A stretch of 39,743 bases of DNA from Thermodesulfovibrionales bacterium (GCA_963715195.1 CAVQRT010000016.1:1-39743); one strand, 5' to 3'; counted from the first letter of the stretch, positions 30,001-33,000 are shown. Made by a program: the numbers.

Positions 30001-33000
30001 CGAGACGATGTTCTTCAACGAGAAGGGCAAGGTAAACAAGGTTATCGCCCATTACAATTGAAGCTTTAACAAGACGGCACAGACTCTAATAAAGTGGTAA
30101 GCTGTCTCTTTCTTTGCATTAATATTTCCTGTACTAAATAGCAATCATAATTGATATAATTGGAGACAGTACAACTGCAATTCCTCGACTATAAGGAGAT
30201 TACGATGCCTGCCTATGAATATGCCTGTAGAGACTGTAAGGATGAGTTTATCGTTTTCCTTTCAATTAGAGAATTTGAATCTAATCCGAAAATAAAATGT
30301 CCTCACTGTGGGAGTGATAACGTGCAAAAAAAGATTTCGGAATTTACTGCTAAGACAAGCAAGAAGTCATAGTTGTTTCTAATAAGTTCCTAAAATCTCC
30401 AACAATTTCATCTATTATAATAGGACGGATCAATTGTGTAATTGGCAGACCTGATTTACAATGATGCTGAATGGGTTCTCTTACTAATATTTTCAACCTT
30501 GTTTTTGGGATCAACCTTATTGTGGTTGGTTTGGTAGCACTCATCTCAGGCATCGTATCTCTGACAAAGAGAAACAGATCGGTAAAGAGACTCACTTCTC
30601 TAGTCATTATCATTGCTGGAGGTGCTGCTGTTTACTTTGGTGTTATTCTATCGAGAAGCGCATATGATATGTAAAGGTTGGAATATGTACTATTGAAAAA
30701 GGGACCTCAACTCAACTGCTTCTTGGCACAAACACCTCTAAACCCTGATATAATTATCCTCATTTGAAATGCTAATTCACATTTGCTGGAGAAATCTGCA
30801 CAATATGGTGTAATCTTTGGTTTAAAAAAGGAGACAAATGAAATGGCGCAAGGAACTGTGAAATGGTTTAATGAGAGCAAGGGTTTTGGATTCATTACTG
30901 CTGAAGACGGTACTGATGTTTTTGTCCACCATACGTCTATTCAAGGCAGCGGGTTTAAGACCCTTGCTGAAGGTAACAAAGTTAGCTTTGATATTGAAAA
31001 AGGTGAGAAAGGTCCCAAGGCGGTCAATGTCGTTAAACTATAAATAGATTGAGAAGTTCCCTTTTTCTTGATGAGCCCTTCTTTATTTGAAAGAAGTATC
31101 ATAATAATACTTGACAACCACTACGAGATGGGATATAAGTAAATCAAGGAGAGTGAGATTACGATAAGTGGTGGTCTTCCTCCTCTCAAACTCAGCATAC
31201 GTTGTAAGGTCGTAGACGTAAAGTAGCAGACGTAAAAAGTCTTAAGCTGTATGTCTCAGGATGTACAATCAACTGAGTTATGGGGGAGGAAAGCACCACT
31301 TTTTTGTTCACATCAAAAAATTCTACCTCATCCCTAATAGTGATATAACTGTGCTGAATACAACCGGGAATCACTAAATGAAAGCAGGTCAGATTCTATA
31401 TAATTTTGTTCTCGCACTTTGGGTAGGCGGGATTTTCATCTTCACGTTTTTAGTGACTCCAATCATCTTTCAGTCATTCAGCAGGGATACCGCAGGAGAA
31501 ATAGTTGGAAAGCTTTTCCCCTATTACTTTCCTTATAACCTAGTTCTCTCTATTGCGGCATTAGCTATTTTTATTGTATTTATCGGGATAAGGGGATATT
31601 TCCGTGGAAAGATCGCAATCATCCTTTTAAGCATTGCTGTTGTGATTAACCTGTTTATAACCTTCAAGCTCTATCCCGACATCATAAACGTCAAGCAACA
31701 AATCAAAACCTTCGAGACACAATCTGACGAATCTCCGGCACGGAATCAGTTCAGGAAACTGCATGCAACAAGTGCAATATTGAATATACTGTTGTTAATA
31801 GATGGTACCGCTTTAATAATCCTTAATAATATTTCAAAAAAATCAGGAGATATAACATTTGACTGATTGGAAGAGAACAGTACTAGAATAGCAAGGCAAT
31901 TCTCTGGCTTGACAATCCATTTTGTTAATTGGAAAATAGCTAGGGTTCAGAAATTGTTTCTATTTCTGAAGGGAGCACAAAAGGATAGTGGGGCCGCTAT
32001 TAGGTGGATATCTACCTGATAGCGGCTTTTTTATTGCGAATAATTTATCTCAGGGAGGTGTGAATGAAGGCTAAGGATTTGATGATTCCTTTGCTGGAAT
32101 ATTTAAGTCCTGATCATACGCTCAAAGAAGCAGGCTATATCCTCAGGATAGCCCGGAGAGGAGAAGAGAAGATTGGAGCTAAGGCTTTGCCAGTTCTTGA
32201 TTCAAAAGGCAAATTGATAGGTATTCTTTCGATCGGAGATATCCTCAAGGCGGTTTATCCGAAATATATGTATCTCATGGAATTAGGAAGCTTTACGTGG
32301 GATGGGATGGTAGAAGCACTTGCTCAAAAAATGGCGGACAGAAAAGTCAGCGATTTAATGACAAAAACGGTTATTACCGTCAAAGAAGATTCACCAATCA
32401 TGGAATGTATCGATCATATGCTGAAACATAATGTTAAGAGAGTCCCTGTCTTGAATAGAGAAAACAGAGTTATTGGGATGTTGTATGAAAGAGATGTTTT
32501 CTACTACATTACAGAGTTCATGTCGAACAGTAAATCAGAGGTAGGTGAAAATGAATGAAACATTTACCTCAACACAGCCTTTTGTTATGGATACCGCATT
32601 TTGGATAGCAACGGCTATCTTCATTATTGCTTACGCAATAATCGTATCTGAAAAGATCCATAAGACGATCGTTGCAATTTTTGCCGCCAGCCTGATGATC
32701 GTGTTAAAGATCCTTGAACAACATGAAGCCTTTCATGTTGAGGAACTTGGTGTGGACTGGAATGTCATATTTCTTCTCATATCCATGATGATAATTATAA
32801 ACCTCATGAAGCCAAGCGGTATTTTTGAGTATATAGCAATAAAGAGCGCTAAATGGGGCAAAGGTGAGCCATTCAGAATCATGGCGATCTTTGCTATTGT
32901 CGTAGCTGTACTTAGCGCCCTGCTTGATAATGTCACGACAGTGCTTTTAATCACCCCCGTGACATTATTTATCGCAGACGCACTGGAAGTAGATCCGATA

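Follow-up and report, generated by a model that had tools for sequence, protein, structure and literature searches.

A rod-shaped small RNA built on a tandem 14-15-nt repeat in one order of Nitrospirota, a candidate multivalent protein decoy

A 39,743-nt contig from a Thermodesulfovibrionales bacterium (GCA_963715195.1, CAVQRT010000016.1:1-39743, hereafter the window; its genome is G000) contains a locus that is best explained as a stand-alone, sigma70-transcribed non-coding RNA, and we consider it nearly certain that this is a real non-coding RNA gene. Its homologs support a family of free-standing small RNAs (sRNAs) limited to one order of Nitrospirota, whose carriers are uncultured bacteria related to sulfate reducers. 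By analogy with known systems, we lean somewhat towards the RNA acting as a multivalent protein decoy that resembles CsrB/RsmZ but serves another protein; about half of our confidence in this function derives from a genomic module of basic-protein, Csp and RRM genes.

The RNA locus and its paralogs

The features of the locus are collected in Table 1. A sequence search of the genome recovered all four paralogous copies that an earlier note on this DNA had described, at the places it had given. The three further copies resemble the window copy at 86.6-88.8% identity, and the next-best match in the genome (E 0.0023) is the antisense of the same rod. Two of the four copies share 94.7% identity, which is confined to the unit. 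Because the assembly has 6.6% contamination and holds several identical gene duplicates, only the two copies on contig C7 lie with certainty on one chromosome. A cold-shock gene precedes the C7:8648 copy, as it does the window copy, and the DUF4149 gene does not recur beside homologs.

Table 1. Features of the RNA locus in the window, its neighbours and its paralogs in the genome
Feature	Position	Strand	Basis or remark
RNA unit, window copy	C16:31141-31310	+	coordinates of the earlier note
RNA units, further copies	C7:8648-8815, C7:123998-124168, C27:3017-3184	all -	coordinates of the earlier note
-35 hexamer TTGACA	31111..31116	+	upstream in 36/37 genome matches to a pattern without promoter
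-10 hexamer TATAAG, 17 bp past -35	31134..31139	+	sequence reading
Purine-rich 5' leader, 22 nt	31146..31167	+	start predicted from promoter spacing and Y/A step
Alternative early hairpin, leader with closing-stem 5' strand	31147..31184	+	predicted, -15.1 kcal/mol
Closing stem, 5' strand (GUGGUG, 2-nt bulge, CUU-C/G-CUCC)	31166..31187	+	folding, alignment
Repeat array, five unit copies	31201..31265	+	matrix, and reading by eye against homologs
Array units	31201-31206 (partial), 31209-31220, 31223-31234, 31239-31251, 31253-31265	+	
Apical loop	31232-31238	+	inside repeat array
Closing stem, 3' strand, ends CACCAC	31282..31301	+	folding, alignment
U-tract, likely intrinsic termination point 3' of the rod	31300..31305	+	conserved in alignments A1/A2
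Cold-shock protein gene, neighbour outside unit	30843..31043	+	PF00313, E 5.5e-29
DUF4149 membrane protein gene, neighbour outside unit	31378..31866	+	PF13664

The promoter previously reported for the RNA, TTGACA followed after 17 bp by TATAA, was confirmed, and in a comparison of 155 promoters T occupies position -12 in 94% and A position -11 in 92%. In the same comparison a pyrimidine stands at -1 in 96% and an A at +1 in 86%, which shifts the likely start of transcription from the earlier 31141 to 31146. The promoter spacer contains no palindrome that could serve as an operator (best complementarity 0.39), and it has no regulon matches in the genome. At the other end, the U-tract is overlooked by a simple terminator scan because the stem that precedes it is long-range. 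No reading frame is conserved on either strand among the four copies, and 1-nt insertions and deletions occur inside. Elsewhere in the window, positions 25386-26658 hold an element of 1.25-1.3 kb that is repeated at 93-99.7% identity on C11, C12 and C23 and is probably an insertion sequence.

Transcription is inferred mainly from conservation, because the metatranscriptome contigs that match the locus show neither strand nor ends and may be derived from DNA. The stretch is contained, at a small share, in two RNA runs of two studies, where contigs in four metatranscriptomes of four studies had been claimed. Each run yields one contig with a depth of about 2 that covers 31176/31178-31302 at 96-98% identity. 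Both contigs run on past the 3' end, for 126 and 56 nt, into non-matching sequence, and the uncovered flanks are given no evidential weight. The head-to-tail joint of the rod ends that had been reported from one contig is not listed in either of the two, and a circular form is unsupported here.

A rod conserved by compensatory change

Folding of the window-copy strand bears out the rod closed by pairing of its 5' and 3' ends: it has a predicted energy of -61.4 kcal/mol and a z-score of -6.2, and none of 200 shuffled sequences is equally stable. The bulged rod, formerly given as 140 nt long, is revised in extent to about 31166-31301, i.e. 136 nt. Forty rows were aligned with plain MAFFT, and base pairs were assigned from averaged pairing probabilities; 92.4% of cells are then paired, and two-sided changes occur in 15 of 46 pairs. 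This level is reached by 0 of 500 shuffles, although 19 of the rows were retrieved with a pattern in which part of the stem sequence was fixed, and relatedness among rows inflates the shuffle test. Slid controls on the same alignment leave only 34-51% of cells paired. The compensatory changes noted before are real but, on this alignment not fitted to a model, fewer than the 20 of 42 pairs then counted. RNAalifold on 23 rows finds two-sided changes in 7 of 40 pairs, and in the closing stem (helix 1) 96.6% of cells are paired and 7 of 19 pairs change on both sides. Support independent of the alignment test comes from the metagenome interiors, which were left free in the search pattern and fold strongly nonetheless (median z -5.4, with 98 of the 103 matches listed below -2). 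Minimum free energy (MFE) folding gives a branched structure rather than a rod for 17 of 105 RNAs among the matches listed.

All alignments exclude the truncated copy L017; A2 also leaves out L003 and L005, whose rods are identical to that of L002, and 18 duplicate genome matches, and A5 omits L225, which equals L152. The repeat counts exclude L152 and L158, which are without the family interior. The truncated copy itself (L017:1488-1577, in G020) has retained the repeat core and lost the promoter and the 3' closing strand.

A repeat array of variable length inside a fixed frame

The interior of the rod is an array of a 14-15-nt unit, GUC-KYA-RGM-YGU-A, which is present in 2-7 copies within a fixed frame (127-200 nt overall) and appears in divergent members as a clean tandem of GUC-YCAR-GAU-GUAAA. 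A matrix built on 105 distinct RNAs among the matches listed finds 291 sites, or 2.8 per RNA as compared to 0.09 in shuffled sequences; across these sites the units are spaced by 14 nt 88 times and by 28-30 nt 45 times, and the best-conserved positions are G1 (96%), C3, G8 and G11 (97% each). RNAs with the same frame grow in length with the number of units (3 units in 127 nt, 5 in 171, 6 in 172 and 7 in 200), and a 3-unit and a 7-unit RNA precede the same gene. The window copy has two strong units, the last two, which lie over the matrix threshold, and three degenerate ones that were identified by eye against homologs. The GAUGU/GACGU motifs listed earlier are present, not as scattered elements but as pieces of the regular tandem unit. 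Since the units are quasi-palindromic, they are predicted to pair in a nested manner into short helices with repeating loops, and the commonest apical loops are of the GAY-GUAAAA-GUC types.

A leader predicted to pair with the closing stem

The predicted leader hairpin is an alternative fold that was absent from the earlier note; the models indicate that it is conserved and excludes the closing stem. In 30 of 39 and in 69 of 101 homologs, the predicted pairing between the leader, which is 16-23 nt long, and the closing-stem 5' strand surpasses that of shuffled leaders (p<=0.05). When the window copy is folded step by step, the leader hairpin remains the MFE structure up to a length of about 140 nt and has disappeared at 160 nt, and the full rod is computed to be 10.6 kcal/mol more stable than the leader-hairpin state at 37 C. 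The leader is not essential, because a divergent copy, in G273, is without one.

Distribution and genomic context

The RNA family was found in 34 genomes, all of one order. Among 81 related genomes, BLAST detects it in 18 and a covariance model in 21, from 5 of 13 families; a second model adds one weak match (G014, E 0.002), for which a third gave no confirmation. Samples of 150 genomes each from the phylum and the class contain 4 and 17 carriers, respectively, every one in the window's order, in keeping with the conservation across Thermodesulfovibrionales proposed before. A pattern scan of a genome collection returned 37 matches, 36 of them in metagenome-assembled genomes (MAGs) labelled Nitrospirota and one labelled 'bacterium', and TTGACA lies upstream of 36 of the 37 even though it was not part of the pattern. 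In metagenomes, a pattern that specified only promoter, stem ends and U-tract matched at least 121 loci; the family interior is present in 105 of 107 distinct units examined (103 from the metagenome matches listed and 4 from L045/L050). Two patterns gave no match in viral contigs.

Carrier genomes have 1-4 paralogs. The 205 loci fall into 72 flank clusters with no common neighbour, which confirms that flanking genes differ among loci, and a convergent gene follows at 33 of 52 loci, the downstream functions being unrelated. With neither a shared neighbour nor a conserved frame, the RNA cannot be a riboswitch, a retron or part of a toxin-antitoxin cassette. At L020/L058, a long ORF that looks by eye like an IS transposase has its end at the promoter, where it has taken the place of the -35 element in one copy. 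L045 and L050 each contain two RNA subtypes, encoded on opposite strands some 2 kb from each other, with two related small genes (Hsp20-like by eye) between them.

Comparison with known RNA classes

No Rfam family matches the RNA at E<=10, in agreement with the earlier result, and none matches eight divergent loci at E<=0.5. The separation from 6S-like RNAs likewise stands, as our family model scores the four 6S and 6S-like loci of the genome at E>=1.3 and RF00013 does not score the RNA loci. Like 6S RNA, the molecule is a rod of 130-200 nt closed by its ends, but no model matches in either direction, no central bubble is predicted, although MFE folding also misses that of the true 6S, and the length varies. 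The canonical 6S gene of the genome lies at C8:23744-23932; three 6S-like paralogs (C30:251876-252052, C3:294981-295156 and C2:172124-172299) fall below the Rfam cut-off and have a common promoter layout.

The closest likeness is to CsrB, RsmY and RsmZ, which are also stand-alone sRNAs with several paralogs, many short motifs and a U-tract end. According to the accessible part of one source, these RNAs titrate CsrA through multiple binding, and CsrA recognises A(N)GGA in single-stranded RNA (PMC4066749). The present RNA shares with them many repeated sites in a stand-alone sRNA (2.8 per RNA against 0.09, and 2-7 per RNA). It is nevertheless not a member of the CsrB/Rsm family, as an A(N)GGA repeat is not what its units carry (GGA in 69 and AGA in 79 of 291 sites) and CsrA occurs in 2 of 21 carriers. 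The motif is instead GUC-KYA-RGM-YGU-A, with GGA in 24% of sites, its repeats sit in a rod within a closing stem, and CsrA was not found in 19 of the 21 carriers. The absence of CsrA from the genome itself was confirmed, and the earlier doubt about a CsrB-like membership is borne out; CsrA is present in 3 of 5 further carriers of family f7.

Several other classes were rejected. The sole RF00169 match in the genome, at C30:22324-22421, lies elsewhere and the RNA has no SRP motif, which sets aside an SRP RNA; a bacterial Y RNA is not supported, since Ro60 (TROVE) was found in 0 of 5 carriers. A retron or other reverse transcriptase (RT)-associated RNA would not fit the lack of a recurrent neighbour, with RT in 3 of 5 carriers, and a type I or III toxin-antitoxin RNA would not fit the lack of a conserved frame and of a shared downstream gene. 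A cis attenuator or riboswitch is contradicted by the convergent, functionally incoherent downstream genes, and a small peptide or toxin by the unconserved frames of the four copies.

Other likenesses concern single properties. In the E. coli SRP (4.5S) RNA, as the available text of one study describes it, a transient 5' helix (H1) rearranges to a rod during transcription (10.1101/2023.06.01.543211); here too an early 5' hairpin would give way to a rod, but the hairpin consists of the leader paired with a closing strand. FopS of Bacteroides is a multi-copy sRNA from hosts with single-RRM proteins (PMC11697453, accessible portion), and RRM proteins are encoded in 21 of 21 carriers of our RNA; FopS, however, is described there as having a single-stranded 5' seed and a terminator and as acting by base pairing, whereas the present RNA is almost fully paired and built of repeats. 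A literature search, which covered few subscription papers and part of the motif table of PMC2864571 without its Additional files, returned no paper on this RNA. It thus appears to be a previously undescribed family that sides with neither the CsrB, SRP and Y RNAs in the tests above nor with any 6S model, and that probably works like a protein-sequestering sRNA.

Candidate protein partners

A candidate partner is a 58-aa Lys/Arg-rich protein (C7:181925-182101) that belongs to no Pfam or NCBIfam family and whose look-alikes are all hypothetical. We reached it through the neighbourhood of L247/L259, where the RNA lies about 130 bp upstream of its gene. In the genome it stands in a cluster of RRM, bS21 and basic-protein genes (C7:181925-182638; L290:997-1722), and a csp gene is found within 1.5 kb of the basic-protein gene at 8 of 12 sampled loci. 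Short basic helices, such as the phage N and Rev peptides, read RNA loops. Arginine-rich-motif peptides on boxB hairpins and bulged rods (PMC11480772, PMC4488727, both as far as the available text goes) offer an analogy for a basic helix reading the loops of the array, but the candidate is Lys-rich, without a Pfam or NCBIfam family, and homology to these peptides is not shown.

The basic protein is present in 20 of 21 carriers as compared to 32 of 60 non-carriers; in the class sample, which overlaps the 81-genome set, the corresponding figures are 17 of 17 and 64 of 133, and overall 33 of 34 carriers have the protein. Its query was a 41-aa low-complexity piece, and the related genomes in these counts are not independent. 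Among the 23 genomes of family f7, 11 were found to have the RNA, and the protein occurs in the same 11 and in G273. A model that includes the promoter was then applied to 36 genomes with the protein and without a detected RNA; it revealed a full-length, repeat-bearing copy in G273 (E 1.3e-7) and no RNA in the other 35. With this copy, presence of the protein equals presence of the RNA in 23 of 23 genomes of f7, where the most sensitive model covered 1 of the 11 genomes without the protein. Hfq, taken as a control, shows no link (18 of 21 carriers, 51 of 60 non-carriers), and RRM proteins occur in 21 of 21 carriers and 48 of 60 non-carriers. Carriers have larger genomes (2.9 versus 2.3 Mb), and within family f1 at sizes of at least 2.5 Mb the link with the basic protein, at 13 of 14 against 6 of 10, is not significant (p 0.12). 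Cold-shock domain and RRM copy numbers are also higher in carriers, yet they track genome size.

Csp and RRM genes neighbour the RNA in 4 of 72 flank clusters, a weak excess over the 1.1-2.4 expected. A tree gave no resolved link to a Csp subfamily (1 of 15 inner branches supported), KhpA/B and RtcB occur in carriers and non-carriers alike, and an ANTAR partner was found in 0 of 5 genomes, in none of which the control gave a signal. According to the accessible parts of two sources, RRM and Csp proteins of Bacteroides serve redundantly as chaperones under cold stress (PMC13370968), and FopS, a multi-copy sRNA family there, is bound by the RRM protein RbpB (PMC11697453). Because of this chaperone role and the RbpB-FopS precedent, an RRM or Csp protein could be the true ligand, and the basic protein may be a mere marker of the csp/RRM module. 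That the csp/RRM/basic-protein module provides the partner, as its co-occurrence with the RNA hints, seems to us possible but doubtful.

Proposed mechanism and alternatives

In the mechanism that we propose, a fixed frame of leader, closing stem and U-tract holds 2-7 units; their pairing gives a rod made of short helices, in which internal or apical loops of the GUA(A) type recur, each a likely (predicted) binding site. During transcription the leader may hide the 5' strand of the closing stem, and the 3' strand would displace it only at the U-tract, so that closure and termination would come last. The protein bound could be the 58-aa Lys/Arg-rich protein, which is the leading candidate, or the Csp or RRM chaperones encoded beside it. 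A stand-alone RNA with paralogs and a variable count of one motif has the layout of the protein-titrating sRNAs, and the variable repeat number favours a CsrB-like mode with a different protein. Some observations count against a decoy. Most of the repeat sequence is base-paired in the predicted ground state, unlike the sites of CsrA, which are single-stranded (PMC4066749, accessible part), and the unit is not enriched upstream of protein-coding genes. The latter holds 20-100 nt upstream of 2616 called genes, where there is also no strand bias (-100..-20), and no autoregulatory unit site lies upstream of csp, RRM or basic-protein genes; an excess of unit matches at -20..+30 of genes arises from the Shine-Dalgarno sequence and AUG.

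A more specific version would make the RNA and the 58-aa protein a new post-transcriptional switch: the RNA would titrate this protein, or its cold-shock/RRM partners, the number of repeats would determine its capacity, and the leader would delay closure so that the sites load during transcription. This version strikes us as unlikely, if worth stating. If true, the circuit would resemble that of CsrB but rest on an unrelated family of proteins, one with members in Thermodesulfobacteriota and Acidobacteriota as well. Among bacterial RNAs, only a few are known that soak up protein, and the best-known target is CsrA; an RNA with its own repeat, a tunable number of units and a conserved folding switch would point to an RNA-binding regulator in anaerobic Nitrospirota, and would give an unannotated small protein family its first testable function. 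The small size of both the RNA and the candidate proteins would allow binding to be studied in vitro without culture of the host.

Among the alternatives to a decoy, it is quite unlikely that the RNA pairs in trans with mRNAs in the manner of FopS, through its CU-rich, anti-Shine-Dalgarno-like 5' strand or its purine leader after a chaperone has opened the frame. The sequence of the strand CUUGCUCCUCUC shows high conservation, the RNA is multi-copy and RRM proteins accompany it in all 21 carriers, for which there is a precedent in the accessible part of PMC11697453; however, this strand is paired in both predicted states, Hfq was not found in 3 of 21 carriers, and base pairing would leave the variable array unexplained. 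We regard it as improbable that the repeats only build a bulged helix, and that the RNA is a structural decoy or scaffold for an enzyme that recognises double-stranded RNA (e.g. RNase III) or a ribosome-associated rod. The strong conservation of the rod (median interior z -5.4 for the 103 metagenome units listed) and the mutual pairing of the repeats would suit such a role, but the unit is conserved beyond the needs of pairing, at G1 (96%) and at C3, G8 and G11 (97%), and 17 of 105 RNAs fold branched.

A divergent 6S-type RNA that binds RNA polymerase, which the earlier note had left open, is very improbable. The size of the rod and a genome that holds a 6S RNA and three 6S-like paralogs would be compatible with it; against it stand the failure of RF00013 and of our family model to score each other's loci (E>=1.3 for the latter), a largest internal loop of 4-8 nt in 92 of 105 RNAs, though MFE folding also missed the true 6S bubble, and a length that varies between 127 and 200 nt in repeat steps, i.e. 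a repeat number at odds with the fixed geometry expected of a 6S RNA. There is only a slim chance that the RNA belongs to the CsrB/Rsm family at least by origin, kept after the loss of CsrA or used only where CsrA remains: the unit resembles CAGGAUG, and CsrA is present in three of the five extra f7 carriers, which have the cleanest repeats, but its rarity among the 21 carriers (2), the 69 GGA sites in 291 and the lack of any Rfam CsrB/Rsm match speak against it. Equally slim is the chance of a selfish or functionless mobile cassette (MITE/REPIN-like), an RT template or a circular RNA, since the many neighbourhoods, the two copies alike at 94.7% over the unit only and the RtcB found in all 5 genomes examined, whether or not they carry the RNA, are outweighed by the mere 1-4 copies per genome, the retained promoter and G-U-tolerant covariation, the failure to find RT in 2 of 5 carriers (one a single-contig genome), and the absence of viral matches and of a joint in the two RNA contigs.

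Other features of the chaperone genes and similar promoters

The genome has 12 cold-shock domain matches, the most of the 81 genomes, and at C7:349609-351322 it clusters csp, RRM and a second KhpA-type gene. Four csp leaders (C7:135526, C7:351394, C28:5987 and C31:44969) contain, just before the ribosome site, a hairpin whose loop is of the GAC-UUU(U/A)A type and which in most cases precedes a U-run. In a sample of 33 RRM genes, 12 fit the loop word and about nine (L271, L272, L274, L277, L280, L281, L285, L289 and L291) have the same hairpin, and it is likely a separate cis-regulatory motif common to two unrelated families of RNA chaperones. A match to rtcB (C2:300968-302272) contains one in-frame TGA, unlike four relatives. 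Finally, promoters like that of the RNA head two mutually similar structured leaders, at C30:297425 (-) and C30:276324 (+), which are possibly riboswitches; the gene after one of them we take to be TusA-like.
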